This document shows, in pieces, positions 1-36,307 of a stretch of 44,698 nt of DNA. The position numbers were made by a program, and so were the translations under genes. The DNA lies in contig JAUCBJ010008616.1 in assembly GCA_032718475.1 (NCBI GenBank), forward strand, positions 1-44,698. The letters run 5' to 3'. The notes beneath the pieces were generated by a model. The model did no database searches. It was not told where the DNA came from and saw only the letters and a list, made by a program, of their open reading frames with translations. Origin of the DNA: Nemertoderma westbladi. Its lineage: Eukaryota; Animalia; Xenacoelomorpha. The number at the start of each line of letters is the position of its first letter. Positions within the stretch are counted from its first letter, which is position 1.

Positions 1-689
1 TGTAAAGATCTACCGTCTCTAGGACACTTTATTTGTGAATGATACAGCCCTTAGGTCCAGTCGGACAGATTAAGTGATTATTAAAACCAGTGTTATCAGG
101 GTCAGCATATATATGTATGTATCAACCTTATTCAGTTATTGCATACCGGTACCTCAATGTACTTATAACGCCTGATAACGGATTTACTGGGGAGTTAGAC
201 CTGGAGGGACTTTTTACTTCTAACACATATGTTCAACTGCATGTATCGTACATTTGTTGGTTGTTATCTGACTCGTTTGTAGCCCTTTATCTGCTTCTGG
301 GTTGTCTGGTTGTGCATCGTTGGTTCCTTTATGATTACCGGTGCCGATTATCGTTAAACCACCTCTATAAGAATAAAGTCAAATGGTTTCATATCTACCG
401 TTTTGCCTTCTTTGCCTGAATGTCTGAAGGGCAGAGTCGTCCGATGTCCTAACAAACAGCTTTTAGGCAACCATTAACATTTGTTATACATGCGGATCCA
501 GATAAGCGATCGTATAATATAGATGTATAGCTAAGAGAATAGAGGCATAAATTAGTTAAGATAACCGTGCTTATGAGTAGCCCATCAATCCAGGATTTCA
601 AGTTGCAGGTGATGTTCTAACCCCCTTTTTATAACACTAGATTATATATAAGTCTCGCCTTCTATAAATCTTGTGAACCGACTGCAACA
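1..689 (+). repeat. 5' LTR of element 1 (689 bp)
   Basis: Starts TGTAAAGATC and ends ACTGCAACA; AATAAA at 372-377. By eye it differs from the 3' LTR by one substitution and one 8-bp indel. Confidence 0.96.
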
Positions 690-701
690 TTAGAAGTAAA
701 A
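690..701 (+). promoter_or_regulatory. Primer-binding-site position of element 1, non-tRNA type, complementary to own LTR
   Basis: TTAGAAGTAAAA directly follows the LTR, lacks TGG, and is the reverse complement of LTR 212-223 (TTTTACTTCTAA). Confidence 0.7.
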
Positions 702-1835
702 GTCTAGCGTTGATCTGATTCAACCGGGCTATTACTGCATTTACTTTCAAATAAATAAAATTGATCACTGTAGCGGCCCTGGTGCCTCGCAGCCTGGCCC
801 ACAGTAAAATTTGTTATTTATCTTCAGATTCTAGCTGTCTATTGTCTAGAATTTCGGAAAGCGAAGCCTAGCCTGTGCTTGTCCGACCCCACAGAAAACC
901 AGACATTGCTGTAGCCAAAATAATTCCACAGACTTAATTCTGAAAATTTTCGTTAGTCTGTAAATAGGCCCAATCTGCTAATCCAATAATCACACTGCAC
1001 GGCTGCCTATGTTATAGCGGCCTATTCCTTTATTAATCAGTTGAATATTGGTTAGTAGTCTATCTATAGTGTAGGCTATTATTAATAAGGCTTACCTGCC
1101 TACTGTATTACCTTCCACCTTAGGCTGTCAGGCCCTATATATCATGTCTGCATGTAATTTCTAATAATATTACTGATATATATATATTATCTTATACATT
1201 CTGTTTGGATTTATAGATTTATTGCAGTGGTTTGTTTGTAATATCTAGCCTACTGTGCTACTGGTTGGTTGGTACCAATGGTATATTTTAATTTACCTGT
1301 AGTTTATTAACGGACTGGATTGTGATATAAATATATATTTGCTGGTAGGCCGACGTCGGGTATAGTAGTAGGCCTATAGATTATTATATAGTATGTACCA
1401 GATACCACAAGGCTTACTTGGATTTGACTAATATTACCGGTAAATTTAATTCGATATATTAAAAACTATACTGGTACCGGTAAGAAAAATATATAATTAT
1501 TTTGTAGAGTATAATTATTGACAGCACTGTATACATTAGGCCTACCTATACCGGTACGGATATATTTGTATATGGTTCTACTAGTACCGGTCTCGTACAA
1601 TTTCCACTATTCGGATATTACAATCTTTTTCAATTTTCTCTTTTACTAGGCTAATGAGTTAAAATCAGTCTTTATACGCCTGTACAGTACTAGGAATAAC
1701 ATACCGGTATCAAATGTAACTGTAAATACTTATGCACTATATAGATTACGACTAGGTCTGTAGGTTACGCTACACATATACCGGTACATATACAGTAAGT
1801 TTGTATAAAAGGATAAATTACCCTACAGTACTATA

Positions 1836-4800
1836 ATGAGTAGACCTATTCTAACAAAAGAGTTTCACTCCTCGGGTTCAGATGATTTAGGAGAATTTAA
1901 TGAAACTGTTATACAACAACAACTGGCATTGTCAGATTCTTCACAAATGAATGTCGAACGTTCAGTGATACAGCCACTAAGTGGTGCAAGAGCAAGTGGA
2001 CATGGGGAAGAAGAAGCGCAACCTTTAGAACTTCCCAGGTTTCCTAATCTATCTCTCGATGAAATGAGAGGATTTAATTCCCAAACATATATTGATAAGT
2101 TACCTATAACTCTTCCAGACGATCGTGCATATCAGAGATTCACTAAAGCTTGTGAAACATTGTATATACATTCAATTGATCCTGGTATGTCAGTGGCAGA
2201 TTTAGGCCGCAGCTTAGGTGGATATGCATCTGGAGTGACACGGTTTTTACGTTCATATGAAGCTAAGCTTCAACCTGATACGCTCCGAAGTATACAAGAT
2301 GATGAGTTGTTTGAATGGTACATGGACATTGAACATAAATTTTTTAAATTTAAGGAGATTGCGTATTGCATTCGACTCGTATCTCAATGTTTTGGGTATG
2401 TGCAGTTAGCTGAAAGAGCAAAGGCCCATTCCGAATTTTATTTTCGATGGGTGCAAAGATTATCTAAAGTGATTGCCCCAGTTGCGGGTGATGCTGGTAT
2501 GCGTCTCTTAACTGAACCGCCACCATCTGGAGGTGGATTGAGTATAATCAGTAGGTCTACCAATGGGAAGCAAGTGGAACTAGATCGCAGGGAAAATTAT
2601 CTTTTACAATCACAAGCCAGATATACTAGTCACAAGGAAAGAGTCAGCAATTATTTTGATAATACCATTCGAAATACTGAAGAGATGGATAAAGCCAACA
2701 ACAAACAACGCAGAATGAAGAGATTAATAGAAGAAGAAAAGAGACAAAACAAATTGGAGGCTTTAGAAGCAGAAAGACAAGAGCAAGAAGCGCTAGAGTG
2801 TCAACGCCAGAAAATGGAAGAATTGAAAAGCAAACGTGAGCAATATCTGGAAGTTTGCATTGATAAGGAATCCGAAATGCAGTCTATGTTAGGAAATATT
2901 ATTGAAGAGAAAAGGAAGGAGTCCCAGTCCCCCTCTAAAATATTTTCCACACTCGATGACAGGGTTGCGGCATTAGCACCTCCTTCATTTGGTAGCCTAT
3001 TCAATCCTACAGCCCCTGCGATTCAACCTTATAATGAATCGTTAAAGCGGTATCTAACACAAGAGGATGAAGAGGCAGACCCAATTTCAATGTCAGATAT
3101 TGAATATGAGATGACAGATGACAAATTTCCCTCATTACCAGATCATGGTCCGCTGACTTCAACCCTTATTGAGCCTTCCCATACAAAAATACAACAATTG
3201 AAATCTTTAGTAACATCTACAAGTAGCAAGAATTCTGATTTTAAGTCTTTGGCTTTAACCAGGGGAACACCAACTCCAGTACATCAACATTATATGGACC
3301 CGAAACCTAGAATTCCAGGGCCAGCATTATGTAGGCCTAATTTGGTTCCACCACAGATGACTGATATAGGTCACAGCGATCAACAGTGCCTTGGTTTCGT
3401 GTCCATGACAACTACATATCCAAATACATCATCCAGTATTATTACTACGTGTGTTTCACTATTGCCTGATACTAGGTCTACACCCTTGTCAACTTCAGTT
3501 AATCCAGTTAGATCGTTGACTACAGTGAATACAAGTCTCCATCCTTCCTCAATGGTTAGTAGTTATATTGGGTATAATAACTACAACACATCTAGATATC
3601 TACCATATGTTTCAGGTTTTATTCATCCTTTAACTGGAACCCCAGTGCGAGGTTATCAAGGTAATATTGCAACGACTACATTATCAAGCAGGATTATACC
3701 ATTGCCAGTACCGGTAAATGCAAAGCACCCATCTATGCCATTAGTGCAGCATCCCCAACTTTATCATAATACTGTGCCATGTTCTAATCAACTACCATAT
3801 CATTTGCCCAGTACACAGTCCCAATATACAAACCCAGAATCAAACATACATCACCAGTCACCAATTTTAAGTCAACTGGAGAGGGACTTGCTTCATGCGA
3901 ATAAAGCTAATAAGCATTTACAAGAGCAAAATAAATTACTAGCCAATCAAAATGCATGCCTACAAGATAATACATCTCAACTTCAAGACGTACTCTCTAT
4001 GCAGAAACATCAATATCATTATTCGAGGACCCCATTAATCTCTAAAACCTTGTATGATCCTTATACCAGTACATCTATTCAATCACAGACTTTGCCACCA
4101 CTGCCATCGGATACCATTACACCAGATGAATTAAAAAATTGTGTTAAGAGTGCTATTGATCGCAACACTTTGGAAATAAATAGAACATTGGATGATAGGA
4201 TTGAAGAATCATTGGCTAGATATCATGATCGCATCAATCTCCCAGGAGGAACTGCCTCTGGTCATAAACAGATACCCGGTTTGTTAAATATGTCACGATC
4301 TAGGTCAGCAAATGATGACTCTGATCTCGAAAGAACATTTGTCAAAGTGATGTCACGTATGGCCACAAATCAGACTTATCAATCAATGCCAAAGAGAGAT
4401 GCAATCAAATTTTCAGGATCATCGAATGACTGGATCCCTTTCAAACATTCATTCTTGTCTGATGTTGAATCATTGGTTATGTCACAGAGGGAAAAATTAT
4501 CTTTCCTTATAAATGCTTTAGATGGTTCACCAAAACGTCTTGTTGAAAAGTTTGTTGGTATTGATGATGGATTTGATCAAGCATGGGAAGAGCTGAAGGA
4601 TAGATATGGTAGAGATCAAACTGTGGTGCAATCATTACTTGATGGTTTAATGGAACTTCCACCATTGAAAAATTCTTATCAGACAATCGAATTCTCCGAT
4701 GAATTCACTAGAGCTTATACACAACTCGAACGTCTTGGGGAAGAGCAAGAGCTAGATAGTACGAAAGTCCTTAGGGATCTAGCAAAAAAGTTAGACAATG

Positions 4801-5273
4801 CAACACGAAGGAGATGGGCTAAGCGGAGCTTGGAGATTGAAGAAGATCCCCATAGTAATGGAAAGGTATTAGGAAAGGACTTTAAAGATTTTCTGAAACG
4901 GGAGGTAAAGGTTCTCATAAGAGATAAACTTGATGATGATAAGAAGAGAGACCCTAACAAAGATGAGAAATTGAGGGATGTGAAAAGTTGGGCAAGAGCG
5001 AATGTTGCTAAATCGTCTTCACCCATTTCAAGTGAAGACGATGATGGTGAGACAGTCATGGTTACTAAATCAAAGATTTCAAGGAATAAAACTAATTTTC
5101 CAAAGAAACAGATTAATAATGTGCATGTAAATAATGCAAAGGAAAATAAAGGTATAAGTAGTGGTGTGCTGACATTTTCTAAGGGTACTGGTGAGCTGAA
5201 ATGTGTACATTGCGGGGGGACACATACACTATATAAATGTGACAAATATTTAAAAATGTCATTAGAGCGATGA
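1836..5273 (+). CDS. gag: BEL/Pao gag with long N-terminal extension, ending at a premature TGA inside the zinc-knuckle cluster
   Basis: 1145-aa ORF. The KFSGSSNDWIPFKHSF...EKLSFLINALDG...AWEELKDRYG block is Pao-gag (DUF1759-like); CVHCGGTHTLYKC knuckle. The same frame continues past TGA 5271-5273 into CFNCLSDKHTRLHC and CRECGFAHHTTLH. Confidence 0.92.
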   Translation: MSRPILTKEFHSSGSDDLGEFNETVIQQQLALSDSSQMNVERSVIQPLSGARASGHGEEEAQPLELPRFPNLSLDEMRGFNSQTYIDKLPITLPDDRAYQRFTKACETLYIHSIDPGMSVADLGRSLGGYASGVTRFLRSYEAKLQPDTLRSIQDDELFEWYMDIEHKFFKFKEIAYCIRLVSQCFGYVQLAERAKAHSEFYFRWVQRLSKVIAPVAGDAGMRLLTEPPPSGGGLSIISRSTNGKQVELDRRENYLLQSQARYTSHKERVSNYFDNTIRNTEEMDKANNKQRRMKRLIEEEKRQNKLEALEAERQEQEALECQRQKMEELKSKREQYLEVCIDKESEMQSMLGNIIEEKRKESQSPSKIFSTLDDRVAALAPPSFGSLFNPTAPAIQPYNESLKRYLTQEDEEADPISMSDIEYEMTDDKFPSLPDHGPLTSTLIEPSHTKIQQLKSLVTSTSSKNSDFKSLALTRGTPTPVHQHYMDPKPRIPGPALCRPNLVPPQMTDIGHSDQQCLGFVSMTTTYPNTSSSIITTCVSLLPDTRSTPLSTSVNPVRSLTTVNTSLHPSSMVSSYIGYNNYNTSRYLPYVSGFIHPLTGTPVRGYQGNIATTTLSSRIIPLPVPVNAKHPSMPLVQHPQLYHNTVPCSNQLPYHLPSTQSQYTNPESNIHHQSPILSQLERDLLHANKANKHLQEQNKLLANQNACLQDNTSQLQDVLSMQKHQYHYSRTPLISKTLYDPYTSTSIQSQTLPPLPSDTITPDELKNCVKSAIDRNTLEINRTLDDRIEESLARYHDRINLPGGTASGHKQIPGLLNMSRSRSANDDSDLERTFVKVMSRMATNQTYQSMPKRDAIKFSGSSNDWIPFKHSFLSDVESLVMSQREKLSFLINALDGSPKRLVEKFVGIDDGFDQAWEELKDRYGRDQTVVQSLLDGLMELPPLKNSYQTIEFSDEFTRAYTQLERLGEEQELDSTKVLRDLAKKLDNATRRRWAKRSLEIEEDPHSNGKVLGKDFKDFLKREVKVLIRDKLDDDKKRDPNKDEKLRDVKSWARANVAKSSSPISSEDDDGETVMVTKSKISRNKTNFPKKQINNVHVNNAKENKGISSGVLTFSKGTGELKCVHCGGTHTLYKCDKYLKMSLER

Positions 5274-7831
5274 AGGGAGCTATGCAAAGAGCTTAGTTTG
5301 TGTTTCAATTGCCTATCAGATAAACATACTCGTCTACATTGTAGCAATAAGGGAAGGTGCAGAGAATGTGGCTTTGCCCACCATACTACACTTCATAAAT
5401 TGAGTCTTACTCAACGGGACAAGGATGATATTGCGTCTCATCACATAGGAACTGATACAGATTCAGATGCTGCAACTGATCATCTGGCAGATGAAGAGTT
5501 TTGCGACCTTGCTGTGATTGAACAACCTATAACCATTGGAGATGATGCCACTGTATGTAAGATTCAAAAGGGTAAAGCATCTATCAAGGAGTTCCCTATA
5601 ATTACCTTGAAGGTTGCTGGGGATATAGGTATGGCGACGATACATGCTTTGATAGACTCTGGAAGCTCGTCATCTTTTCTTGATTCATCTGTATTTAATC
5701 AAATTTTCTCTACAAAGAAGTCGAATAAATTAAATTTAACAGTTGTGACTTGGAAAAAGAATATGGATGTTGCTATTGCTAAAGGTAATCTTAGCGCATT
5801 GTGTCCAAATGATAACACAAGAGAAGCTAAGAATGTAAAGTTGATTAGTATGTTTGATCTGAGTTCATCTTTAGGTTATCCTTATGAATGGAGCAAAGAT
5901 GAATTTGTGAAAAGGAATCAAATCCCTATACCTCAATCAAATGGTAAACCAATTGAAATGCTTATAGGTCAAAATTGTCCAGAAGTGTTTCGTCACAGAG
6001 AAACTATACCTTCGAACCTGCAGCAATCGTATCAATTTTCAATTCCATTCGCAGCTCGCACTGATCTGGGATGGTTCTGCTCTGGTCCATCCGAGAGAAC
6101 GATTGCTGAACGAGAGTCCGAAACGATAAACTTTACAGACATAGCGAATGAATCTACATGCCATTGTTATGTTGAATCAGCTTTCCATGAACTTAAGGAC
6201 TTACTAGTTACTCCAATTTACAATAAAGACCCTCTGATACAAATAAAATGTATGTTGAATCAGACAAGTACTATAAAGGATGAAGACAATATTGAAGTGG
6301 AAAGAAATGATTGTAGAATGAATAGAATTAACAATTTAGAATCTGACTTTATATTGGAACAGAAGGTTCAAGCTTGGCTTGAAATGGATGCCTTTTTACC
6401 ATACGAAGTTGAGCCGGGGTTGTCAGTTGAGGAACAACGTGCCATTGATATTCAACAAAAAACTTGTAAACTTCTCCCGGATGGCCATTATGAGATCGAA
6501 CTTTTATGGCGAGATGCTAAACCTGAGCTTATTAACAACGAACCTTTAGCGCGTAAATGTGCTCTAACAATGAGAAAACGGCTTTTGCGTAACCCAGAAG
6601 TCCTCGAGATGTATAATACACAAATGCGGAAATATATTGATCAAGGATATGCTGATAGAGTTCCCCAAGAAAGTTTAGAATTTGGGCCGCGATCTTATTT
6701 TATGCCTCATCATTACGTAACTCATGCAAGTAAGCCAGGGCGAGTGAGGGTTGTTAATAATTGTGCTGCATTATATCAAGGTAAATCCCTCAACACAGAA
6801 TTAATGCCAGGTCCTAACTTATTGAGAAATTTATTTGGAATTTTATTTAGATTTCGTCAGTTTATGATTGCATTTACTTCAGATATTGAGGCGATGTTCT
6901 TGCAAGTAAGAACCACTAAGGTCGACAGTGACAGTTTAAGATATTATTGGTGGCCTGATAATTCCCTGGCGGGAGAACCAGTACAGTTTTGGATGCTTTG
7001 TCAAGCATTCGGAATCATATGTGCTCCATCAAACTCCAATTATGCTCTAAGGGTTACAGCGGATGACAATGCCCATAAATTTCCTCCGACAGTGATTGAA
7101 ACCATAAAAAAGGACATCTATATGGATGATTGCATTAAATCCACAACGACATTACCATTAGCCATGATCAATGCCCATGGAGTGCAAGATTGCCTTAAGC
7201 TTGGAGGTTTCAAATTAATCAAATTTGCAAGTAATAGTCGTGAACTTCTGGAGACATTTCCTCCTGAAGAACGAGCTCATCCTAACGTAGATCTTGACTC
7301 TGACCCATTGGTGATGCTTAAGATACTTGGTTTGAGATGGGACCCCACCATGGATCAATTTTTCTTTGATGTTAAATACCCTACTTCAGAAATAGAAGTA
7401 CTAACCAAACGTATATGTTTGTCACGTCTTGCGGGTATCTTTGACCCACTTGGTTTTCTTAATCCAACGATATTATTAGCGAAGATCTTAATCAAACGTA
7501 TGTGGAATATGGATCTTGATTGGGATGATGCTATACCAACCGAACTGTCCACAACATGGCATCAGTGGGAGCTAGGTCTCCAACAGATCAATGATTTGCG
7601 AATAGATAGGCCATATTTCGAAGATCTTCTTCAGGATCAAGATCTTGAGCTTCATACCTTTTCGGATGCCTGTGGCGAAGGCATGGGAGCGGTATCATAT
7701 TTACGATTAGAGCGAGATGGTGGTTTTCAAGTCAAAATGGAATTTCGTTCCAGGACCAATAAATCCCGCTGATCTGGCATGCCGGGGAGCCTCTGCTGAT
7801 GAACTATGCAAAGCCAATACGTGGTGGATAG
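5274..7831 (+). pseudogene. pol: Polyprotein continuation: knuckles 2-3, aspartic protease, reverse transcriptase, internally deleted RNase H
   Basis: Protease ALIDSGSSSSF; RT motifs SDIEAMFLQV and YMDD; TKRICLSRLAGIFDPLG; RNase H start LHTFSDAC. At ~7730 the reading jumps (+1 frame) to the RNase H C-terminus KWNFVPGPINPADLACRG...WWI. Confidence 0.93.
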
Positions 7832-10285
7832 TAGGGTGGTCCTTATTTCAATGTAAAATTTAAAAGTTGTGGAAATTCTCCTCTGACCCCCCCAAGTCCT
7901 TTCTTCTGATAAAAAAACACCTTGAGTAAAGTTTGAACACAAATGATATATATTTAGAGGTAGCTCAAACACCCTGAAGTTGAGCGTTTGGACACCATTT
8001 GATCGCGCGCGAAGAATATAATGGAGTTTGCTGATATTAAGGCTTCTGTTGGTCGTACAGAGTTAATTTTAGGCTTATTTGAACCGCAATCATCGATTTA
8101 GTGGGTGTAGATAGCTTCAAAACAAGTGCTAAGCTAGTAGTTCTTGAGATATCACACAAAAGCTTAAACCCGGCACAACTCATCAATCGATCATTCAATT
8201 GATTACGCCTAGGAGATATTGAAATATTGGCATTAACATTTTGTAGGTCTACCTCCCTGCATCTTATTTCAGTTAATCTCGATGTTAGCATTGTCTAACC
8301 ATTCAAAGCTATGTTTAGTAAAAAAAAAAATTCATCACAACCCCATGGGAAATGCTTGCACAAGCATCACTAATTTGTGTCTAAGCTCCATTTGCTACAA
8401 TATCAATAATTTACCACAAAACTTAACTTTTGGTTAATTATATCTAGGAACTGTTTGTTTAATTTGATTTGGACTGATTTTAAGGTGCAGAATCCAAAAA
8501 TCTCATCTGATTTGAATTTTAAAATGATATAGTGCATGATATACAACAATACCATACTGTACTTCAAAGCATATTAAAAGGATTGATAGATACAGAGATA
8601 TGTGCATCCAGCGACCATAAGAGTACTATATGGGAAGAAGCTTTGAACATATGCATTATACATAATTAGACAGTGCTGATTCCAAATCTGATTTCAGATT
8701 TGCCCTACCCCATCAAGTTTTCTCACAATTGCCAATTTGAATTCAAAAAACTTATCGCAAACGACTATGATGAGTGATGTAGATTCAAAAGAGAATCAAA
8801 TATGCTCAAAATCAATCTAAATCATTGAAAGGAGCTTTCTTTATATGAATTATATATAATTAAAACAATGTTGATTCTAAATCTGCTTTCATATTTGCCA
8901 TAGCATATCAAGTTATTTTCAAAATTACCAATTTAAGTTCAAATTACTTATCGCGAACAATTGTAAGGAGAGAAGTTGATTCAAAAAGAATCAAATATGC
9001 TCCAAATCAATATAAAGCATGAAAAAGAGCTTTGTTAATTTGAGTTATATATTAAACAATGCAATCTATATGGTGAATCTACTATCAGATTTACCATAGC
9101 ATATGTTGTAGATTGATTTGGGGGTGTATTTTATTATTATTGAATCTACTTTTACTCATAATAATTGTTTGCGATAAGTAATTTGAACTTAAATTGGCAA
9201 ATGTAAAAAAAACTTGATATCCTATGGCAGTATGGCAAATATTGAAGCAGATTTGGAATCAGCATCGTTTAAAAATATATAATTCATATAAACAAAGCTC
9301 CATTCAATGTTTTGGATTGATTTTGGGCATATTTGATTCTCATTTGAATCTACGCCACTCATCACAGTCATTTGCAATAAGTTTTTGAACTCAAAGTGGC
9401 AATTGTGAAAAAACTTGATGTGGTAGGGCAAATCTGAAATCAGATGTGGAATCAGCATTGCCTAATTATGTATAATACATATGTGCAAAGCTTCTTCCCA
9501 TATATTAGTTCTCTTTTGGTCACTGGATGCACATATCTCTACATCTATCAATCCTTATCTTAAAATGCTTTGAAGTACAGTATAGTATTCAGGTATTGTT
9601 GTATATCATTTTAAAATACAAATCAAATGCGATTTTGGGTTCTGCACTTAAAATCAGTCAAAATCAAATTAAACGAACAGTTCATAGATATAATTAACCA
9701 AAAGTTAAGTTTTGTGGCCAATTATTGATATCGTACCAAATGGCACTAATGCACAAATTAGTGATGCTTGTGCAAGCATTTCCCATGGGGTTGTGATGAA
9801 TTTTTTTTTCCTAAACATAGCTTTGAATGGTTATACAATGCTAAAATCGAGATTAACTGAAATAAGATGCAGGGAGGTAGACCTACAAAATGTTAATGCC
9901 AATATTTCAATATGTCCTTGGCGTAATCAATTGAATGATCGATTGATGAGTTGTGCCAGGCTTAAGCTTTTGTGTGATATCTCAAGAACTACTAGCTTAG
10001 CATTTGTTTTGAAGGTATCTACACCCACTAAATCGATGACTGCGGTTCAAATAAGCCTAAAATTAACTCTGTACGACCAATAGAACCCTTATATCAGCAA
10101 ACTCCATTATATTCTTCGCGCGCGATCAATCGGTGACCAGACACTCAACTTCAGTGTGTTTGAGCTACCTCTAATATTTGATGTACATGCTTAAAATTTC
10201 GCATGTCGTATTTTTTGACGAAGTGGAAACATTTGAGGGGGTCAGAGATGATAAATTCCAACCTTTCAAAATAAGGACCACCCTA
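7832..10285. mobile_element. Non-autonomous hAT-type DNA transposon with ~1.1-kb foldback arms, nested in element 1
   Basis: 17-bp TIR TAGGGTGGTCCTTATTT / AAATAAGGACCACCCTA; perfect 8-bp TSD GTGGATAG at 7824-7831 and 10286-10293. Removing it restores WWIGPEFLSRGKNHWP in frame. No transposase ORF. Confidence 0.92.
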
Positions 10286-10293
10286 GTGGATAG

Positions 10294-12168
10294 GTCCTGA
10301 ATTTTTATCTCGAGGGAAAAACCATTGGCCAGATCCATTGCCAGACTATAACCTACCTGCTGATGCAGAACTCGTGAAATGGAAAAATCGTCCTATGCGC
10401 TCTAAATTACTCGAGTACCAACCCGTCGGGAATCCAAATGATGCAAGGGAATTTAATATAACTGTTCAATATAATGATCAACTAGTATGTAACAACTTCA
10501 GTGGATATGTGGTAGATTGTCTGGAAAATGATCCAGAGGAAATAAAGCCACATGAGTGTAATTTCCCTGATATAACAGGTGGAGTTAGTGGCAAATATGA
10601 GCAGATGGTAGCCCGGACTAATTCAGCGCGGGCTTTAGCCAAACGTTTGGCAATACTCAAGCGCTTTTGTCATTTCTATCTGTGGTGTCGATTGAATTCA
10701 GGTAAATCTATTCCAAAACATTTCGGTGGTCCAATTTCACTCAATGAATTACATGCTACGCATCATCAAATAATCCGCTTATCACAAAAGGTCACTGATG
10801 TTAACCTTTATACAAAGCGACAACATGGCCAGACAATTAATAGTGAGCCTTTCCAAACCATAATGAGAGATGGACTTTTACGAATTAAGAGTAGGCTAAC
10901 ATTTGCACCTACTAGTGATGAGATGAAATACCCAATCTTGGTGCGAGATCATAGATTACAAGAACAAATGATTTGGGATACCCATATAGATTTATGTCAT
11001 GCTGGGCGTGACCATATCTTAAGTTATCTTAGAACGCAATATTATCTGATACATCCTTGGAAAACTATGAAGAATGTACTACAACAATGTTTGACATGCA
11101 AGAGATATAATGCCCCCTTAATGAAACAACAGATGTCTGACCTACCTTTAACTCGACTAGCTTCCTTTAAACCCGCTTTTTACAATAGTGGTATTGACAT
11201 GTTTGGCCCGATTGATGTGATGAGAGCTAGAACAATTGTCAAACGATGGGGCCTTATAATAACTTGTCTTACTACACGAGCAATCTGGTTGGATATTATG
11301 TTTACTGCAAACATGACTTCATTTACTCTTGCCCTACGCCGGTTTATTGCACATAGAGGAACACCAAAGAGTATTACCTCTGACAATGGTGGGAACTTCG
11401 TGGCAACAAGTAATGATATCAAGTTAAGCATCAAAGACTGGAATGAGGACATCATAAAGAAAGAACTTATGGATTACCATATCGAGTGGCTTGAATGGCA
11501 TTTCACACCGCCTCATGCGCCTTGGTACGGTGGTACTTATGAGCGTCTTATCAAGAGTGTAAAATTAGCCCTTAATAAAACACTACCTATACCTAGGACA
11601 TATCTTAATGATGAAGCTATCAGGACCTTCATGGCAGAAATTGAGCTAGTGTTAAACTCTCGACCTTTAACGAAAATGTCGGCATCACCTGAGTGCATTG
11701 AGGCTCTTACTCCTGCCCATTTTTTGCATCACAAACCTGGAATGATGTTGCCAATATCAACTCTGGAAGACTGTGATTTGTACTCTCAAAAAATGTGGAA
11801 GGTTCTTCAGCTAATGACTAACACATTCTGGAACATTTGGTTACTCTATTATCTTCCAAGTCAAACCCTACGTACCAAGTGGTTTGAGAAGACTGACAAC
11901 TTACACATTGGAGATATAGTACTTCTTCATGATGAGATGAGACCACGCAAATCGTGGTTAATAGGACGCATAACAAACAACGTACAATAGTGATGATGGA
12001 TTGATTCGGAATGTTTCATTAATCACAAAGACTGGCAAGAAATTAGATCGACCAATACAGCGCTTATGTCTCCTTGAACAAGATAGTGAACGTATTGGTT
12101 CGTATGGTAAATGGCCAGTGAATCATAATGATAGTTCTGAATCTGACCTCGAATTCCTCAAGAATTAG
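10294..12168 (+). pseudogene. pol: RNase H tail plus integrase of element 1, with a frameshift near 11975
   Basis: HHCC motif (HIDLCHAG...CLTC) and DDE motifs GIDMFGP, SDNGGNF, GTYERLIKS. After the ORF stop at 11990 another frame continues DDGLIRNVSLITKTGKKLDRPIQRLCLLE...KN* to 12168. Confidence 0.93.
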
Positions 12169-13635: not shown

Positions 13636-13644
13636 TGGGAGCGG
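13636..13644 (+). promoter_or_regulatory. Polypurine-tract position of element 1
   Basis: TGGGAGCGG directly before the 3' LTR; the same 9-mer precedes the 3' LTR of element 2. Confidence 0.8.
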
Positions 13645-14341
13645 TGTAAAGATCTACCGTCTCTAGGACACTTTATTTGTGAATGATACAGCCCTTAGGT
13701 CCAGTCGGACAGATTAAGTGATTATTAAAACCAGTGTTATCAGGGTCAGCATATATATGTATGTATCAACCTTATTCAGTTATTGCATACCGGTACCTCA
13801 ATGTACTTATAACGCCTGATAACGGATTTACTGGGGAGTTAGACCTGGAGGGACTTTTTACTTCTAACACATATGTTCAACTGCATGTATCGTACATTTG
13901 TTGATTGTTATCTGACTCGTTTGTAGCCCTTTATCTGCTTCTGGGTTGTCTGGTTGTGCATCGTTGGTTCCTTTATGATTACCGGTGCCGATTATCGTTA
14001 AACCACCTCTATAAGAATAAAGTCAAATGGTTTCATATCTACCGTTTTGCCTTCTTTGCCTGAATGTCTGAAGGGCAGAGTCGTCCGATGTCCTAACAAA
14101 CAGCTTTTAGGCAACCATTAACATTTGTTATACATGCGGATCCAGATAAGCGATCGTATAATATAGATGTATATTTGTATATCTAAGAGAATAGAGGCAT
14201 AAATTAGTTAAGATAACCGTGCTTATGAGTAGCCCATCAATCCAGGATTTCAAGTTGCAGGTGATGTTCTAACCCCCTTTTTATAACACTAGATTATATA
14301 TAAGTCTCGCCTTCTATAAATCTTGTGAACCGACTGCAACA
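13645..14341 (+). repeat. 3' LTR of element 1 (697 bp)
   Basis: Direct repeat of 1-689 with TG...CA ends. Confidence 0.96.
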
Positions 14342-24198: not shown

Positions 24199-25422
24199 TG
24201 TACGCGCTTTTGAAGACCTTTAGCAGTTTAACCTGCCAAAATTTATATGTCTTTTGGTTTATAAATAGACTTTAGAAATTGACAAATATTTAATACCAAT
24301 AAACACAACATTAGCAGAAGCCAGCCTAGTGCGCGTCCATTCACCCGCTGGATATACCCGGGAGACTGGATTCTGAGGGCTTAGATTGTTATTGCAGTGT
24401 AAGCTTACTGTATTATTCGATTGATCGTTAATAAATAATTTCTGACTAATATTATTCACTTTCGGGAAATATTAACAGTTCCTTTAGGACGTGGCGCTCT
24501 ATCTAGGTAAACAGAGATATGACTTATACTAAACACAACGGTAAGTCGGTAAGGCTTATGATTCACGTATGAGGCGCATTCTTTAGGAAATGCTTAGTTA
24601 TCAGCCACAATCATGCACACTACCGGTAACGCACAATACTGCACACTAATCTGCCGACCGTCAATGAATTTTATCATACATAAAGAGAACAGCAATTGAC
24701 TCATGTAGTGCCTATCAAATAGCATTAAACTCACTACAAACCACGATAATATAAGTCGCAATCGCTATATGTAACCTGTCTCTCTAACCTGTAGTGTATC
24801 AAGAAAATTGGGAAATTTGGGTTCTTTATAGATGTTCTCCAAATAATATTCAACCAACTGATACAAAATAATAACAACAGTAAAAGCATTAAGACGGTAG
24901 GTTAAGATATGATATGACAATGTATGTGCCGATTGAGCCGATAACAGTTATACGTTCTATAATCTAAGCCTACTAATGTTTCTTCTAAAGTCTGAAACGA
25001 ATTGACTCTAGAGCCGGTGTTCCTGGCCTAGATAGAAACAACACAACAGTAACAAAAACACTCTCTGACTCTAACACCGTTGCAGGTATCTTTTTACACA
25101 GAGAGGAATAGCTCTCATTGGCAGAACACCAGATTCCACAGGTTCCACGAATATCTAAATGCCGAACTATCAGGATTTTTGCAGCCCTTGGCCAACACAC
25201 GAAATGAGTCACTCCGCTCGGTTGCCCTGGTTGCATACTCTGCTGCTATAGCTCTGGTTGGCCGATAGAACATAGCAAAGAGCCCCTCGTATAACAAATC
25301 AGCCAATCAGCCGGTCGCTTTGCATCATTCGAGTTAGAGAGCTTTTTAGAGTATTCCAGCGCCTGGGGGGGAACTGGATTGCAAAGCAAAAGGGCCAGTT
25401 ACATCCCACAAAAGCTTTTACA
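24199..25422 (-). repeat. 3' LTR of element 2 (1224 bp)
   Basis: Direct repeat of 36319-37542 at offset 12120. Confidence 0.97.
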
Positions 25423-25431
25423 CCGCTCCCA
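25423..25431 (-). promoter_or_regulatory. Polypurine-tract position of element 2
   Basis: The minus strand reads TGGGAGCGG then TGTAAA, identical to the junction in element 1. Confidence 0.8.
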
Positions 25432-25501
25432 GAAAATGGGATTTGAGTCTATAAAATATACAAAAATCACAGTTTCTAATATACGTAAATACTCTAAACA
25501 G

Positions 25502-26952
25502 TTAGTCTTTCTTGCGCGGACGGCGTTTACGCAGTTTTTTAAAGCTGGCCAGAGTCTTTTTCTCTTTGGGGCGAGCCACTTTACAAGGAGGGCTATAACT
25601 CCTGGGTGAAGGGTGCAATATGATTGCATCAGAGGGTGCAGGATTAGGGTCGGTGTATCCGCCGGTCGAAGTGCCGGGTTGGTTGACATCAACGTCGGGG
25701 GAGAGGGGTCTAACAGCCTTTAGAGCGCGTTTTAGGACGGCCGCTCTTACGGGTCCTTTACGAGTGGTCTGAACGAGAGCCGTGGGTGGACCATAGGCAG
25801 TCAGAAACTTCCTGGGTTTAATGGTTCTTTCCAACTCGCGTTCGCGGGCTCGGTATTCGTAAGGCCGTCGATATACTTCCTGTAACTCGGGGTGTGAGTT
25901 AACAAATAAGTCTCCATAGCTCGGATCCTGACGGATAAAATTGATTAAGTTATAGGAGTGAATGTCGCTAGGATTAATACTCCTGAGAAATTTGCGTACG
26001 AACTTGGTTGAAATACATTCTCCGACGCGCTTCAGTAGTTCGTAACTCGATATGCGTGATTTCTGTTCGACAGAAGCGAATAGATAAGGATGGAACGCAT
26101 AAACTCCTTCGTAAGCGCGTCCAGGATAATAACGATGGCGCGAATCACAATGTAAATCAGTGTTCGCTTCCCAAGCTCTGATGTAACGTAGTGTGATCAT
26201 TTCATCTACGCTTTCCAAATTGTGATTAAAAAAGGGCAATCGAAACTGGCGTGTCCCTTTAGTTGACGATGGTGACATTGAGTCATAAATTGAGGGCAAA
26301 CCGCAAAAATGTGCAAGTTATTGAGTCTGCAATACGCACAATAAATTTCCATCGCCGGTTGTTCGTGGAAATAGGAACAGCGGACGTTTGTGTCCATGGG
26401 CGTAACATGGTCTCTCGATGCGCATAACCGACAACGTTGCCGAGAAACATAGTTGGCATGGCGATAATCGTACGCAGTGAGACACTGTGGACCTTGATAC
26501 CATTCTAGGATGTAATCGTTGTCGCTGTTCCGGGCGCGATAGGCTGAATCTCCTCAGATTCTAGGCATATTGGTTCGTCTTCCCAGTCTGTTACGAATAG
26601 AATTTTCGTGATCTATTCTCGGTTTATCGTTACGACTCCGCTGGGTATGATATTTAAATAGAACCATTTTCCTTTCGGTGTCTACATCGTCCGTATCATG
26701 TAAATCGATAGGATGGCCGGTAGTTAGGAAGTCCATATACGTACTATTACGATGCGTATAGCGAGCGGTGAATTTTCGATAGTTCAATTCACGCGTAAGT
26801 TGCTCTTGGGACATCGGCGGTTCGATATAACGACCATCGTCCTCCGTAATGGTTGGATCGGTTTCACCGCGTATCAAGCTATCCACAAATGCTTGTAAAG
26901 GTAGAGTATATCGCTCCCTGATACCAAGATCATCTTCTATCAACTCCGTCAT
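25502..26952 (-). pseudogene. Accessory ~483-codon gene with three zinc-knuckle-like motifs and a basic C-terminus; one in-frame TGA and one -1 frameshift
   Basis: ORF 26952-26554 continues in frame past TGA (GDSAYRARNSDNDYILEWYQGPQC...CRLCASRDH...) into ORF 26397-26206. A -1 shift in the T6 run at 26228-26233 joins ORF 26299-25502, which ends KKLRKRRPRKKD. Confidence 0.75.
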
Positions 26953-27771
26953 ATCTGCTATCTGAGTTTATTAATATCGAAATGAGTTTATGTTTAGGCG
27001 AGCGGACGTCGCTGCCTACTTCTCTTTGCCCCCGGACAGTGGGATTCTCAGCGCCGATGTACCGTCGTCGCGGTGTTTACGCCAACATGTAGCAACAGCA
27101 CGACAACGATAACCGGCACAAGTCACTCCACTGTCCGTCCCAAAGGCTTGGATCCACTTAGGTTCTTTCTATAGGAGAGTTGGGTTACTTTCACAATTGC
27201 GACTAGCTACTGTAAACATACTTTAGCAGTAACATTCACCTATAAACGCACAAATTCCACACAACTGTCACCAATTGTACACATACAGGCCATTTGTCCG
27301 TTAGTCAGTGCCTTCCAGAATGTCACGTTATTACTGTGTATCTTTGGATACTAACAGTGTGCTATGCATTCTCTATGCTAGGCAATGGGACAAGCTTTCT
27401 ATTGTTCTTTTAACTTGCTTCTAATTCTAGCGTGGGTGTTGCTATGGTGACATTATGGAAAGCTAGCGGTAGAATTATGGTAATTCTCATGCATACAGAT
27501 CTGGAATGCTATTTAATAGTAATTCTTTAATTGTCAATATCCTCTTTATACATGATTTTATTAATTTTATTGGCTATTGACTATATGTCGGAGATTCTCG
27601 CACTCTTATACACTCAATATGATGAATCTCCGCTCCCATGATCTATTAATTAATGGAATTTTGGGAATGTTATAAATTGCACAAGATGACAATTTATGAA
27701 ATTCATTTAAAAATATGAATTTAAATTTATTCCCGTGAATTTTATTATTTGATGTTAAAATTGACACAATT

Positions 27772-28060
27772 TTTATTCCAGAGCATGTCTGGGGACTGAG
27801 GATCCTTAATTCTATAAAATTGTCCTTTAAGAGCATCGGTAAGTGCTGCGATATCTTAATTGACTAGAAATTTTAAAGGATCTGAATTTTACAGATTTTA
27901 ATAAATATTAAATTAATATTTAAGATGGGCACCGATTTATTCCAGAACTTGTCTGGGGACGTTAACCACTGATTCTAGAATTTGTCTTTCAAGTATATCG
28001 GTGGGTGCCGCGATATCTTAATCGACTAGAATTACAGATGGTCAAAAGGTTTAACAGATT
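27772..28060. repeat. Two diverged ~130-bp direct repeats in the element 2 internal region
   Basis: TTTATTCCAGA...TGTCTGGGGAC...GCGATATCTTAAT.GACTAGAA occurs at ~27772 and ~27936. Confidence 0.75.
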
Positions 28061-28583
28061 TATTTGCGTTTTACGCTACTGTTATAGGGACATCATGCTA
28101 CTATATGTATTATTTAATATACGGTAGAAGAGCAATATCGCACGAAGCAATGTCAGTGTGAAGAGGCAAGTCGTTTCCAAGGTCTACCCAGAGCTTGGTT
28201 TAGCCGAGACACGAGGATCTGAACTTTGCATTCCTAATACTCTGCCTACCAATAATACTTGAATATAGTAGTGGCTTTATTGTACTTTAATAAGTACGGA
28301 CATTTCATCTTACTGTAGTCACGTATTTATAATATGATACGGACAGTAAGGAAAGAGAAAAAATAATTATTTCTCGCCGTCGCACTAAATATATATTATA
28401 AGTAATTACGTACGTAATAAACACTAATATATTGCACTAATCTACTAAATAATCACTAAAATAACATTCTACTAAATAAAATTAAAGGAAACGATTATAA
28501 TAAAATTACATAATAATACATACATAAATATAAAATAAAAACAAATATAAAATGATACAGTCACACGCCCACTCCATATGCTA

Positions 28584-28731
28584 TCACGTTATGGAGTCCC
28601 TAGATATTCGTCGGATTAGGGAAGTGGTCGTAGGAAGAGTATCTTGCCTTCCATAGTTTCCGGACAGTTTTCGGTCTCTTTCCAGTAAACATAAACGACT
28701 AGCTGGGCGATTGAGTTTTTGTGTTACTTTC
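28584..28731 (-). pseudogene. Remnant extreme C-terminus of BEL/Pao integrase
   Basis: KVTQKLNRPASRLCLLERDRKLSGNYG aligns with element 1 KTGKKLDRPIQRLCLLEQDSERIGSYG. Confidence 0.8.
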
Positions 28732-29994
28732 TCCGCTCCCTTGGCCTGTCTACGCTTGCGTCCTTCTGGGCTCTTCTCTGATGACTCCGAGGCGCACCCA
28801 TGAGGCGGACGCTGTCCCACCACCCTTGGGGCCAGTCCGACTCCGATCAGACTGGGCTGGAGGGTAGCCTGATGCTTCCCGGGTTCACTTTTCAATCCCC
28901 CGATCACACCGGCACAGCTCGTCGGTGTAGCCAGATGGTCGGCTACTGTCAACTTACTGTGGCCTGACTGTACATTGAGCCAACTCAAAGAGTCAACCGG
29001 CGGGTGGACCAGTCGATAGCGATCGAGCATCAAGGTCGCCCTTGAGCCAAACCGACGGTCTTGTCCCATGTGGGCTTTCGCTACCCAGCATGGAATATTG
29101 ACACGTTTTCACCCGCCTCGCCGGCAGTATTGAGGGGAAGTCGGTTCCGCAAACAATACTGACTAGCTCGAAAGCTAGGAACAAGTCACCACTTACCAGT
29201 CACTGTACACGTGTACTCAATAGATGCTCACGAAATCAAGTACACAACGGTAAACACAAATCTGACGCATACCATGCACACACAGAGGACATAATCGGGG
29301 AGGACAAAATCGGTGACAAAATCAGAGGGGACAAAATTGTATCGACTGATAAAAGAGTCGAGAGTACCTTATTTTGCCGTCAGGGCAAAATAACTTTGTG
29401 TGCACAAAGTATGCTGGGGCGCAGTAAAGATATGGTCCTACTAATAACCAGAGGCAACTGAACCAACCGGTAAGGGTTCCCATACCCACTCGCAGTGGCC
29501 ATACATACACTCACGTATACCACGTACACACACAAACCACAGATTCCAGAGTATCATTCACTCGGACCACACTACAACACCAACCCCTCCTTGCAGCCGA
29601 TATTCCGGGTGCCACCTCCATTCCAATAGTAGTACCAACAGAATCACCAGGAACCTGTCCATTCCGATGCAACACCTCCATTCCAATAGTGCTACCCTGG
29701 GAAAAGACACGTTTTGGCAACCGATCGGAGACAGTAAAGAGTCTGGTCAACTCATACATACCACACATAGACCTACCACATAAACCACAGATCACACTAA
29801 GCCACCACCCCTACTGTGTACAGGACTGGCAGTACGGCAACAGGCCGACTAGACGGTACCACGGCACCATGTTGATTCATGGTTCGTCAGACACGAGGGC
29901 CTTCAGTATCTCCCTAGCACTATACCACGGATTTAACGTGCCCCCAGACCCTCACGAGTCCGCCGCCGCCTGATGGAGACCCCCTATAGAGACC

Positions 29995-32900
29995 TCACCT
30001 CTTTAGGATCTCCGCCGTGGTAAGATGAGGAGGCCAATCTTCTTCTTCTTTACTTAAGAAGTCGGATCCACCTAACCAGCCTGGAGTATCTATCAGTTCT
30101 TGAGGAGTTGCTCCTCTGGAAGCGATGTCGGCTGGATTAATCGTCCCAAGGCAATGTCTCCATTGATCTACATTGGAGTTAATATCGTCATTATCTGAGG
30201 AGTATGGTGTTCCTTCAGTTGGATCGTCCACATCACTGCTCTCCACTTCCCATTCCTTTACTTGGTATACCTGTTGTTGAGGTAATCTCTCTTTGAGAGT
30301 TCTACGGGAAGGGCCAGTGAAGTACCAACCTACTCTAGTTCTTACCGCATAGGTTTGTAGTGGCTGCGGTTGAGCAGGCCGTTTCTCCAATGTCTCGAGC
30401 GCCTCATGCGCGTTTTGGCCGATGAGTATTTGCACTCCAGGATAATCTGTCTGGAATCGAGGTATCTTAAGCTGTTGGATGCTCTCATCCTCGTCCCAAT
30501 TATAAAGGTCTGCTTGGGTAGTAGCGAAGTTCTTTATAGCCACCATTTTTACCGACCTTATACCTTGTGCTCCTAATTTATCCTGGGGGGTGGACAACAC
30601 ACCTACATAGTAGTCTGCCGTTAGGGTAGATTTCCAAACCTGCATAATTCCTGACATATTCAATTTAGTCCGGAATTTGGGTTGTCCAGCAAAAATATCT
30701 TCGGCTAGTTCTTGATCGATGAATGTTCCTGTGCTGCCGGAGTCAAGGAGGGCGTTCACTATGTAACTTTTGTTAGGACCATGAACTCTTACCTGCACTA
30801 CAGGAAATTCTCTGATTCCTACGTTGGAAGTTGGAGGTTTCCAAGATGGTTGTCTGTCAAAGGTAGTTGGGGGGAACTCATTGTCGGTGTCCTTTTCATA
30901 CGTAAGTGCTCGATACACTGCGGTATTTATTAGGTAACAGGATTCGTTGGCGTCGGAGAATTCGTCCGTATAGAATCCTTCCATCTCAGACTCTTGATCA
31001 GTGTCATTTACATCACTGAATTGGACATGTAGTTCGGGCTCACTTACCTGACTCGGGTTGTCTCGTTCGAACTCACTGTGTAACAAGATGTGATGTTTCA
31101 CGCCACACTTTGCACACTTTACGTCGGAGTAACAGGTTCGCCGTTGGTGTCCTGATCTGAGGCAATTATAGCATAACCGCTTATTCCACAGGACTGCACG
31201 TCTGTCTACAAGGGATTTCTTTAGAAATTCAGCACACGCACTCAAACAGTGGGGCCCGTCGCACAGCGCACATTTTGGTTTGATGTTACTCACCTTACCT
31301 TGGGTAACGTTATGCACTCTCGTTCTTTCTTCGGGCTTTCTTCCGTAAATTCTCTTAGGAGACGTAGGAGGAGTTGTTGTTACCTGTTCTCTCCTGTCAC
31401 TGGTTCGAGACTTGTATTTACTTACGTCTTTATAGGTCTTGTTGTCATAGTAAGATTTTGCTGTGTCTTTCCCACTGTCCTCTTCTTGAGAAGCTTGGCT
31501 TTCGCCGTCGTCAGTATAACACACTGGTATTATCCTTCGCCTAGAAACGGGTTTCTCACTTACCTTATTTTCCGATGTTTTCTCTCTGGACTGCTTTATG
31601 AGTTGTAATTTTACTTCACTATCTAAGAAGGACATGAGATCAGCCATGGTAGGGCTTCGTCGTTGCTGCTCATTCATATACAACACTTTCTTGTCCCAAC
31701 GTGTACATACTCCACCCTTAGGTAAAGTAGAGACTACGGCTCCAATAACCATGGAACTCTGATATTCATGAGACTTACCTAACCAGTCCAATTGTCTACA
31801 GATCTCCTGAATCTCATCGGAAAACTCTATAATCCCGCTACTAAGGAAGTTTCGGGGGGCTACTAATTTTGCATACAAATACTTAGCTATGTTATCCTTG
31901 TTACCATACCTGATGTTTAATGTATCCCAAACTTGTCTTAATCCTTCTGGATGTCCAATAAACTTTAACGCCATTAACTTGGGAGGTCCTTCCAAACACT
32001 TGATGAGGAATCTAAGCTTCTCTCCGTTAGATAGTACAGAGTTCTGTATGCTATCTTTGTAATATTCATTGAAAGGTAACCATTTCATCTCATCTCCATT
32101 GAATTTGACGATCTCTCCCACCTTAACCGCTTGGCGGGCTTCTGTTCTAGCCATCTGACGCGTAAAGCTTTCTTGGGCCATCGTGTTATTTAATATCGAA
32201 TTATCGGTATATAAATTTCTCGGATCATTATCAGGTCTATAGGGAATATCATTAACAACAGGTTTATAATCACCCTTAATAGGGTTTGCTATAGGAGTTT
32301 CTACTTCACTAGCAGTATAGATGCGTGTAGGCTCCACACCTTGCGCATGTAATACTTCAGACCTAACAGGTTGACACCATGTTACAGGGGGTATTGGTAT
32401 CGCTTTTTGTATATTGACTAATTTGTCGCGTTCTAGAGCGATACTTTGCTGCACTTCTTGCAATTCGGCCCTACCTTCCCTTACTGTTCCCTTAAGTTGG
32501 TGGACAGTCTCCTGCATCTGTCCGAGCAGGAGATTCATCCCCCGCCGTCCCTCCTCTACCCACTCGACCGCCGAAGCGGGAGTTGCCAACATTGTAGAGG
32601 GCTGACGCGGGATGACGGGAGACAAATCTTTGATTTCTCTCTCAGCTTCCAGGACAGGGATATTCTCATGGACTGTTCTACCGGGTACAGGCAGTGTAGT
32701 ACTGTGTAGAGGGAATTTAGAGTTAAGCTCTGGAAGTACAGGGGTCTCTAGCACAGGAGTGGCTTTGGGAACGACAGGCCTAATTATTTCAGGCTCATCA
32801 ACTATGGTAGGGAGTCTTTTGACCTTAATAATTTGGTCTGTGGGTTCTGTACTACCTAAGTCTGTGCTAGCTAGTTGTCTTCTGACAGCTGGGGGCAAAT

Positions 32901-33966
32901 CAGGCAGTTTATGACGGTGAGATGTTTTTCTACGCCTGCTTAGACGAGATCTATTTCCTCCGCCTTCCGGATCGGTGGTCTCGCCTTCTTCCGATGATGT
33001 GTATTCTTGGCGTTTGGGAGTAGATCGACTCATCATCTGCATTTGACTAGCAGTTAACTGTTTATTTATGTTGTCTTGCGTCTCTTGCAGATTTTCCAAC
33101 TCCAGTTGGGTAGTCTGCTCAGACGCTCTCCGTTCTGCTTCTGCCACTGCCTTTGCCGCCTTTCTTTCCGCTTCTGCTTCTGCCGCCGCTGCCTTTCTTT
33201 CTGCTTCTGCTTCTGCCGCCGCTGCCTTTCTTTCTACTTCTGCTTCTGCCATGGCCGCCGCCTTTTGTTCCTCTATCCGTCTTTTCTTTACTTCTTCTTC
33301 CTGGACTCTAGCGAGGCGAAGTTTTTCATCAAATTTAGCTTGGTTTGCAGCTAACATTTCCGCATCGATTGCGTCCAACACAAGCTTGGTTCCTTCACTA
33401 TTAGGGCGAAGTCCAGACAGTCGTCTCCTCAACTCTTCGTCTCCTATGAATCGCTGATAGTCTGACAGATAGATGTCAATGGCGTCTCTAGTTCGCGGCT
33501 TCTCTGCTGCTGTTAATTCGCTTTCCACTTCGCTTTCCACCTCGCTTTCCACTTGAGAAGAAGTGGCGTCGGTTGATTCTTCATAGGTTGGCCGCTCATC
33601 ATAAACCGTATCCGCCATCTTCGCTCCGCGTTCGGGCGTCTGCTCAACAGTATCCGAACTACTGGAGCTATCGGGCCGCTGAGAACTAGGTTCTTGGCTA
33701 GGAGGTTGCTGCTGTTTTATAGCTTCTTCTTGATCCCGCTTGACTTGGGCCCGAGTACCTATGGCAGACCAACGGCGCTTCACTAACTTCGCAAATTGCG
33801 AAATCTTTTCTACCAACCTAGGTTCTGACACAACCACCGCAGGGGTTGCCCTTCTTACAGTATGAGGGGTTTCAGACCTCGGTCTGGGATTCTCTACACT
33901 TTGGTCTGAGAAACAGGCTGTTGTTTCTAGGAGACTATCTGACAGAGTTTGCCTTGTGTCAGCCAT
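29995..33966 (-). CDS. gag: BEL/Pao gag-protease ORF fused in frame to an RNase H C-terminal fragment
   Basis: Open 1323 aa. KFNGDEMKWLPF...EKLRFLIKCLEG gag block; knuckles CALCDGPHCLSAC, CYNCLRSGHQRRTC, CAKCGVKHHILLH; protease ALLDSGSTGTFI; ends with WRHCLGTINPADIASRG...WLGGSDFL...WP. No RT motifs. Confidence 0.94.
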   Translation of the reverse strand: MADTRQTLSDSLLETTACFSDQSVENPRPRSETPHTVRRATPAVVVSEPRLVEKISQFAKLVKRRWSAIGTRAQVKRDQEEAIKQQQPPSQEPSSQRPDSSSSSDTVEQTPERGAKMADTVYDERPTYEESTDATSSQVESEVESEVESELTAAEKPRTRDAIDIYLSDYQRFIGDEELRRRLSGLRPNSEGTKLVLDAIDAEMLAANQAKFDEKLRLARVQEEEVKKRRIEEQKAAAMAEAEVERKAAAAEAEAERKAAAAEAEAERKAAKAVAEAERRASEQTTQLELENLQETQDNINKQLTASQMQMMSRSTPKRQEYTSSEEGETTDPEGGGNRSRLSRRRKTSHRHKLPDLPPAVRRQLASTDLGSTEPTDQIIKVKRLPTIVDEPEIIRPVVPKATPVLETPVLPELNSKFPLHSTTLPVPGRTVHENIPVLEAEREIKDLSPVIPRQPSTMLATPASAVEWVEEGRRGMNLLLGQMQETVHQLKGTVREGRAELQEVQQSIALERDKLVNIQKAIPIPPVTWCQPVRSEVLHAQGVEPTRIYTASEVETPIANPIKGDYKPVVNDIPYRPDNDPRNLYTDNSILNNTMAQESFTRQMARTEARQAVKVGEIVKFNGDEMKWLPFNEYYKDSIQNSVLSNGEKLRFLIKCLEGPPKLMALKFIGHPEGLRQVWDTLNIRYGNKDNIAKYLYAKLVAPRNFLSSGIIEFSDEIQEICRQLDWLGKSHEYQSSMVIGAVVSTLPKGGVCTRWDKKVLYMNEQQRRSPTMADLMSFLDSEVKLQLIKQSREKTSENKVSEKPVSRRRIIPVCYTDDGESQASQEEDSGKDTAKSYYDNKTYKDVSKYKSRTSDRREQVTTTPPTSPKRIYGRKPEERTRVHNVTQGKVSNIKPKCALCDGPHCLSACAEFLKKSLVDRRAVLWNKRLCYNCLRSGHQRRTCYSDVKCAKCGVKHHILLHSEFERDNPSQVSEPELHVQFSDVNDTDQESEMEGFYTDEFSDANESCYLINTAVYRALTYEKDTDNEFPPTTFDRQPSWKPPTSNVGIREFPVVQVRVHGPNKSYIVNALLDSGSTGTFIDQELAEDIFAGQPKFRTKLNMSGIMQVWKSTLTADYYVGVLSTPQDKLGAQGIRSVKMVAIKNFATTQADLYNWDEDESIQQLKIPRFQTDYPGVQILIGQNAHEALETLEKRPAQPQPLQTYAVRTRVGWYFTGPSRRTLKERLPQQQVYQVKEWEVESSDVDDPTEGTPYSSDNDDINSNVDQWRHCLGTINPADIASRGATPQELIDTPGWLGGSDFLSKEEEDWPPHLTTAEILKR

Positions 33967-35788: not shown

Positions 35789-36026
35789 TTCCTCCAAACC
35801 CAACAACAATCCGACAACAGTCCGGCCTACAGTTATCTGAGCAATCTGAGCAGACTTACACGTCTTCAGCTCAATATTAACTTACTAGGAAATAAAACTG
35901 ACAGAAATAAGTAAACTATACAAAAGAATGAGGGGTGATCAATCCCTATTCCCCTGGCAGCCTACAATATACAATAGATCACAATCGAAATAATACTAAT
36001 GTACTTGTACTGGAAGTACCGGTTAG

Positions 36027-36250: not shown

Positions 36251-36307
36251 TTCAGGTTTACCGGTCGACCGGTACTTTCAACTTTATTGCTTACTGCAAT
36301 AAAGACA

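Follow-up and report, generated by a model that had tools for sequence, protein, structure and literature searches.

Candidate tRNA-independent self-priming in a BEL/Pao retrotransposon family of Nemertoderma westbladi

Two BEL/Pao elements in the window

The window, that is, the whole 44,698-nt stretch of Nemertoderma westbladi contig JAUCBJ010008616.1 analysed here, harbours two LTR retrotransposons. Element 1, on the forward strand, is bounded by a 5′ LTR (TGT...ACA; 1–689) and a 3′ LTR (13645–14341), which were delineated by comparison of the pair and differ by two substitutions and one 8-bp indel. Because the 5′ flank lies outside the window and the two copies are identical up to 692, three bases beyond the terminal CA, the LTR end rests on the TG...CA rule rather than on a target-site duplication, and an end at 692 is possible. 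The gag-pro-RT-partial RNase H frame (1836–7772) is followed by the integrase part of pol (10287–11990; Pfam Integrase_H2C2, rve and DUF5641), and a polypurine tract, GGGAGCGG (13637–13644), adjoins the 3′ LTR. The copy is defective: a stop codon at 5271–5273 interrupts the first frame, the RNase H part is apparently shortened (positions 1–111 of 162 in the Peptidase_A17 profile), and pol is split by a nested, non-coding 2.45-kb insertion (7832–10285) with long terminal inverted repeats and an 8-bp duplication, which resembles a DNA transposon and is probably hAT-like. A tandem array of about 90 copies of a 67-bp unit (14450 to about 20500) directly follows element 1.

Element 1 is a member of BEL/Pao (Belpaoviridae), as judged by its domains and by the reverse transcriptase (RT) tree. 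The domain assignment follows from Pfam matches to DUF1759, Peptidase_A17, the integrase zinc domain (Integrase_H2C2) and DUF5641, found in this order, and is accompanied by DSG (protease) and YMDD (RT) motifs, the gene order PR-RT-RH-IN, paired TG...CA LTRs and the polypurine tract. The RT is at most 41%–42% identical to any sequence found, the named relatives being from an abalone and a tunicate; a word-index protein search returned only four matches (29%–38% identity), and no relatives were found in IMG/VR.

Element 2 lies on the minus strand, with the 5′ LTR at 36319–37542, a gag-protease frame at 29995–33999 and the 3′ LTR, preceded by the same GGGAGCGG tract as in element 1, at 24199–25422; a 5-bp duplication, AATGT, fixes its ends. 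No RT or integrase match was found within these bounds (24199–37542, minus strand), yet the LTRs are 99.9% identical and the duplication is clean, as in a recent non-autonomous insertion. The leader contains about six 38-bp tandem repeats. Elsewhere in the window, a 1.4-kb segment is duplicated at 95% identity (40168–41540, 43186–44554 and 44011–44679) and partly overlaps a 222-aa frame without a Pfam match, the DNA of which resembles, by eye, a fragment of a non-LTR RT. No tRNA gene was found in the window.

A primer site complementary to the LTR

Directly downstream of the 5′ LTR of element 1 there is no TGG, and the dodecamer TTAGAAGTAAAA (690–701) is the exact reverse complement of LTR positions 212–223. 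With T211 bulged, the pairing reaches 208 and 704, for a total of 15 pairs, or 16 counting a G-U pair obtained by folding the RNA duplex. The only AATAAA of this LTR, a likely poly(A) signal at 372–377, lies downstream of the pairing partner. Our results confirm the observation made in the sequence-only reading from which this analysis departed. We annotate, both on the forward strand, a candidate self-primer at 208–223 (core 212–223, extension 208–210 beyond the bulge) and a non-tRNA primer binding site at 690–704 (core 690–701, adjoining the LTR). Should the LTR end at 692 instead of 689, nine contiguous pairs and the extension would remain.

Within the whole window, the 12-mer partner of 690–701 occurs only at 212–223 and in the 3′ LTR copy, being identical in both LTRs. 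A match of at least 12 nt at offset 0 was obtained in 3 of 20,000 dinucleotide-preserving LTR shuffles (4/20,000 for offsets 0–5, and 7/20,000 in a separate run with offsets 0–3), so that the earlier rough estimate of a chance match, 1e-4, was about right, and none of the 12,920 internal positions of element 1 has a 12-nt match to its own LTR. The partner is also the best duplex site in the LTR, at −17.4 kcal/mol, the next-best reaching −9.8. Judged by the rule that a self-primer requires a complement of at least 10 nt after the LTR and the absence of a tRNA site, element 1 shows 12 nt at offset 0. A primer assembled by splicing was considered for element 1 and rejected, the best spliced match being 6 nt long versus 12 contiguous nucleotides.

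In element 2, the first 11 post-LTR bases (36308–36318, minus strand) form another non-tRNA primer site, which adjoins the LTR and is the exact complement of LTR positions 472–482 (37061–37071, minus strand), the candidate self-primer of this element; the letters differ from those of element 1. Shuffled LTRs matched as well in 19 of 20,000 cases at offset 0 and in 62 of 20,000 at offsets 0–5. Element 2 constitutes weaker evidence, because its site is a near-palindrome able to form a local hairpin and because its long-range duplex, at 0.04 or less, is not predicted by folding. In both elements, the polypurine tract abuts the 3′ LTR without a gap (13637–13646 in element 1), consistent with a primer site that begins at the edge of the LTR. 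In the relatives described below, the gap between the polypurine tract and the 3′ LTR roughly mirrors, by eye, that between the 5′ LTR and the primer site.

The start of the element 1 RNA was addressed by folding, which predicts the primer duplex, with its 466-nt loop, at 0.6–1.0 for RNA starts at or downstream of 202 (0.9–1.0 at 202–212) and at 0.01–0.21 for starts at 1–200; these predictions favour a start at about 202–212. The folding energy of the whole region is uninformative (z −0.40). Upstream of the folding-favoured start lies the sole TATA-like box (108), which, together with an initiator-like TCAGT (132), may as a motif match mark an alternative RNA start (108–137, forward strand) upstream of 202–212. 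The first GT of the primer site is found at offset 6 in both window elements (690–697 and 36311–36318), and the six preceding bases are also paired, so that the putative cut in element 1 could fall either after 217 or after 223. Of the 13 relatives considered (L005, L007, L011, L012, L042, L059, L065, L066, L079, L090, L095, L106 and L131), 12 have a GT at the position where pairing of the primer site begins or one base further on.

Primer sites and LTR partners in the relatives

Relatives were collected by RT alignment from contaminated genome bins (32 loci) and metagenomes (80 loci), and 26 further regions were fetched. Several of the bacterial genome bins (L001–L032) hold animal contigs with BEL/Pao sequences, with up to 16 matches in G002, a sign of host contamination. 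Most of the 138 loci of the BEL search lack two LTRs and are unscorable; 23 relatives with usable LTR ends were scored for the longest perfect complement starting 0–5 nt after the LTR, either to contiguous LTR sequence or across a GT-AG junction within it. The count leaves aside the LTR pair of L014, which belongs to a different, nested element; L051, a tandem assembly with an undefined LTR end, the twin of which, L049, fits the self-match pattern; L093, which has a non-canonical end and a best match of 5–6 nt; and L088, L094 and L102, which are without a defined LTR end. Four further loci (L114, L118, L121 and L126), members of the TGG family that includes L113, were left unscored. The seven TGG controls include L122, which also served as the outgroup and which we assume from its tree position to be gypsy-like.

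Of the 16 relatives that have defined LTR ends and no TGG, 13 carry a match of 10–12 nt to their own LTR, corresponding to 10 of 13 families, whereas none of the seven TGG elements exceeds 6 nt and a single one of 426 cross-family pairs reaches 10 nt. Below the 10-nt threshold remain L011 (8 nt, or 12 nt with one mismatch as judged by eye), L106 (9 nt) and L040 (6 nt, degraded ends). In all 15 matching elements, the pairing starts 0–4 nt from the LTR end and is 10–12 nt long. Of 15 elements, 12 have A[AT]TAAA downstream of the end of their primer, the other three being without any. When ten loci with only an LTR start were searched blindly, six yielded a match of at least 11 nt, as against two in the reverse-strand control; the matches include L067, the twin of L066, and L015 gave more than one candidate end.

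The matches are contiguous in only three of the 13 relatives (L012, L065 and L079). In the other ten, the match is seen only across a predicted GT-AG junction inside the LTR, with strong donors (GTGAGT, GTAAGT, GTAAGC, GTAAGG or GTACGT), the donor rule having been fixed after the donors were seen and applied identically to the null; in these spliced relatives, exon 1 gives only 3–6 paired bases. The sisters L005 and L007, with 90% identical RTs, differ at two positions of the primer site, and both differences are matched at the end of exon 1. In L079, the 5′ LTR (1–326) carries a splice acceptor directly before the 3′ part of the primer, and the 3′ LTR (6694–7103) has the joined, intron-free form, as if the intron had been lost by way of a spliced RNA. 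The LTR copies of L079 are only 88% alike and the contig may merge two insertions.

Whether primer site and LTR partner covary was the check proposed by the sequence-only reading. They do so across families, the covariation being found in distant rather than close relatives, and this lends support to the core proposal of that reading, tRNA-independent self-priming within BEL/Pao.

Phylogeny of the self-matching elements

In a 26-row IQ-TREE of RT sequences, from which element 2 is absent because it lacks an RT and for which the class of the outgroup, L122, is assumed, element 1 branches deepest within an 18-row clade (support 100/99) and sits on a long branch. The clade comprises 12 self-matching elements and one element of the tRNA-Met type, L100, and four TGGTCC elements fall outside it; a 129-row FastTree agrees. 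Since L100 is nested inside the clade, the self-matching elements do not form one clean branch, and their distribution requires the trait to change twice, by a gain plus a reversal or else by two gains. A single clade of self-matching elements was not rejected (AU p = 0.076). The L100 site (L100:406–425, TGGTAGCAGAGC) is of the tRNA-Met type that the accessible text of PMC5445492 describes for GalEa, and L100 possibly represents a return to tRNA priming. The L100-type motif was not found in the first 5 kb of eight other members of the branch, the LTR ends of which are undefined.

Alternative explanations

Three other explanations of the match have to be weighed. That it arose by chance, or through local duplication as an artefact of a single decayed copy, gains some plausibility from the AT-rich region, the defective state of element 1 and the small target that a mismatch-free 12-mer represents. 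Against it stand the shuffles (3/20,000), the identity of the partner in both LTRs, and the matches in element 2 and in 10 of 13 families outside the window; this explanation is already largely refuted, and we regard it as extremely improbable. The site might instead be primed by a half-tRNA, the match to the LTR being secondary or coincidental. Half-tRNA priming is known in copia lineages, according to the available part of PMC6317226, and positions 690–697 could form eight contiguous pairs with the tRNA-Arg(UCU) anticodon loop. Likewise, 695–705 is one base off what the anticodon arm of tRNA-Lys(UUU) would give, as extrapolated from the FunCo1 site (accessible text of PMC5445492) and from tRNA-Lys(CUU) arms of animal contigs, but such a Lys-like match would begin 5–7 nt from the LTR. 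Among 143 distinct tRNAs, a mostly viral, motif-picked and non-host set, eight nucleotides is also the best Watson-Crick match to the primer site, and the best tRNA duplex reaches −11.4 kcal/mol (the median over 93 Arg(UCU) genes being −8.1) as compared with −16.3 for the self match. Moreover, the primer sites vary by family and follow their own LTR, so that no fixed tRNA explains them, and we consider half-tRNA priming very unlikely.

The pairing may also be real and selected but structural, acting in packaging, dimerisation, poly(A) control or translation control, with priming by something else. Long-range leader pairings are common in retroelements, which we count in favour of such a role, as we do the near-palindromic site of element 2. 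Fungal GalEa elements, in which a hairpin of unknown role replaces the primer binding site (PMC5445492, accessible text), point in the same direction. In all 15 matching elements, however, the pairing starts where DNA synthesis must start and has a length like the 11 nt given for Tf1 in the available portion of PMC7175516; in addition, no other primer site is visible, and the TGG elements are without the pairing. A purely structural role is, accordingly, unlikely in our estimation.

Proposed mechanism and its implications

We consider it likely that the family of element 1 uses tRNA-independent self-priming, similar in function to that of Tf1, within the BEL/Pao lineage. Transcription would start at or upstream of about 212, and the RNA would fold back such that 208–223 anneals to 690–704. 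A cut just after 223, which by analogy with Tf1 could be made by the RNase H of the element, would free a 3′-OH, from which RT would extend, copying 689 back to 224 into minus strong-stop DNA. This product would then be transferred to the corresponding R segment at the 3′ terminus of the RNA, which would end after the AATAAA at 372; as this signal lies downstream of the primer, the R segment would be left intact, a requirement of strand transfer. Most relatives would obtain their primer through the removal of an LTR intron by splicing, element 1 representing an intron-free form. Given that exon 1 of the spliced relatives gives only 3–6 paired bases, their primer would probably carry an unpaired 5′ tail, unlike that of Tf1. 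The broader scenario, to which we give somewhat less credence although we still judge it rather probable, is that an old and large animal BEL/Pao branch dropped tRNA priming in favour of its own RNA, with most families using a primer built by the spliceosome through removal of an LTR intron, element 1 being the deepest and intron-free member, and one nested lineage having gone back to tRNA-Met.

Tf1 has been shown to prime itself, and the same is predicted for some lineages of gypsy and of plant copia. If our interpretation is correct, a self-primed BEL/Pao branch would extend the mechanism to the third LTR superfamily and to numerous marine animals, and a splice-built primer in the relatives would link the onset of reverse transcription to the splicing of the host. 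Such elements might also be independent of tRNA supply and of silencing by tRNA fragments, and LTR finders that demand a tRNA site would presumably under-call them.

Comparison with known systems

According to the ICTV profile, Belpaoviridae are tRNA-primed, with an 18-nt site for the 3′ end of tRNA-Arg or tRNA-Gly; this is a usual trait of the family, which itself is delimited by phylogeny (PMC8742986). Element 1 shares with the ICTV Belpaoviridae (Semotivirus) the LTRs, the DUF1759 of gag, the DSG protease, the YMDD RT, Peptidase_A17, the integrase placed after RT and DUF5641, and element 2 resembles them in its 5-bp duplication, but neither has their tRNA primer site. Self-priming or a splice-built primer in BEL/Pao was not found in the literature searched, which included few subscription papers and Repbase reports, nor was BEL/Pao self-priming found in the accessible parts of PMC3601003, PMC6238403, PMC2774666, PMC12451622, PMC8220671, PMC3118150 and PMC7472051; the accessible part of PMC554778 makes no mention of a PBS, priming or tRNA.

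The closest functional parallels are found in other superfamilies. In Tf1, the 11 bases at the start of the RNA pair with the primer site and RNase H cuts between bases 11 and 12 (available portions of PMC7175516 and PMC4600332). As far as the accessible texts describe them, Tf1 and Tf2 of Schizosaccharomyces pombe, Tj1 of S. japonicus and the Tf1/sushi and Tcn1 groups resemble our elements in having no tRNA site and an LTR-adjacent site of 11–12 nt complementary to their own LTR RNA. Tf1/sushi elements belong to Ty3/gypsy, whereas element 1 belongs to BEL/Pao, a different superfamily; its RT groups with BEL/Pao relatives, in a tree that contains no Tf1 sequence, and not as expected of a Ty3/gypsy (chromovirus) ancestry. 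Element 1 is not a Tf1/sushi member. The primers differ as well, in that Tf1 uses the first bases of its RNA, whereas the primer of most relatives of element 1 spans a predicted splice junction and hence probably does not consist of the first bases. For the TAR lineage of plant Ty1/copia (Houba, Osr-1), self-priming was predicted from a complement of at least 10 nt located 0–5 nt after the LTR (PMC6317226, available part). Element 1 displays the same feature, the assignment being drawn from sequence in both cases; TAR is a plant copia lineage, and a splice-built primer is absent from its description in the accessible text of PMC6317226. In the literature found, self-priming is described only for other retrotransposon groups.
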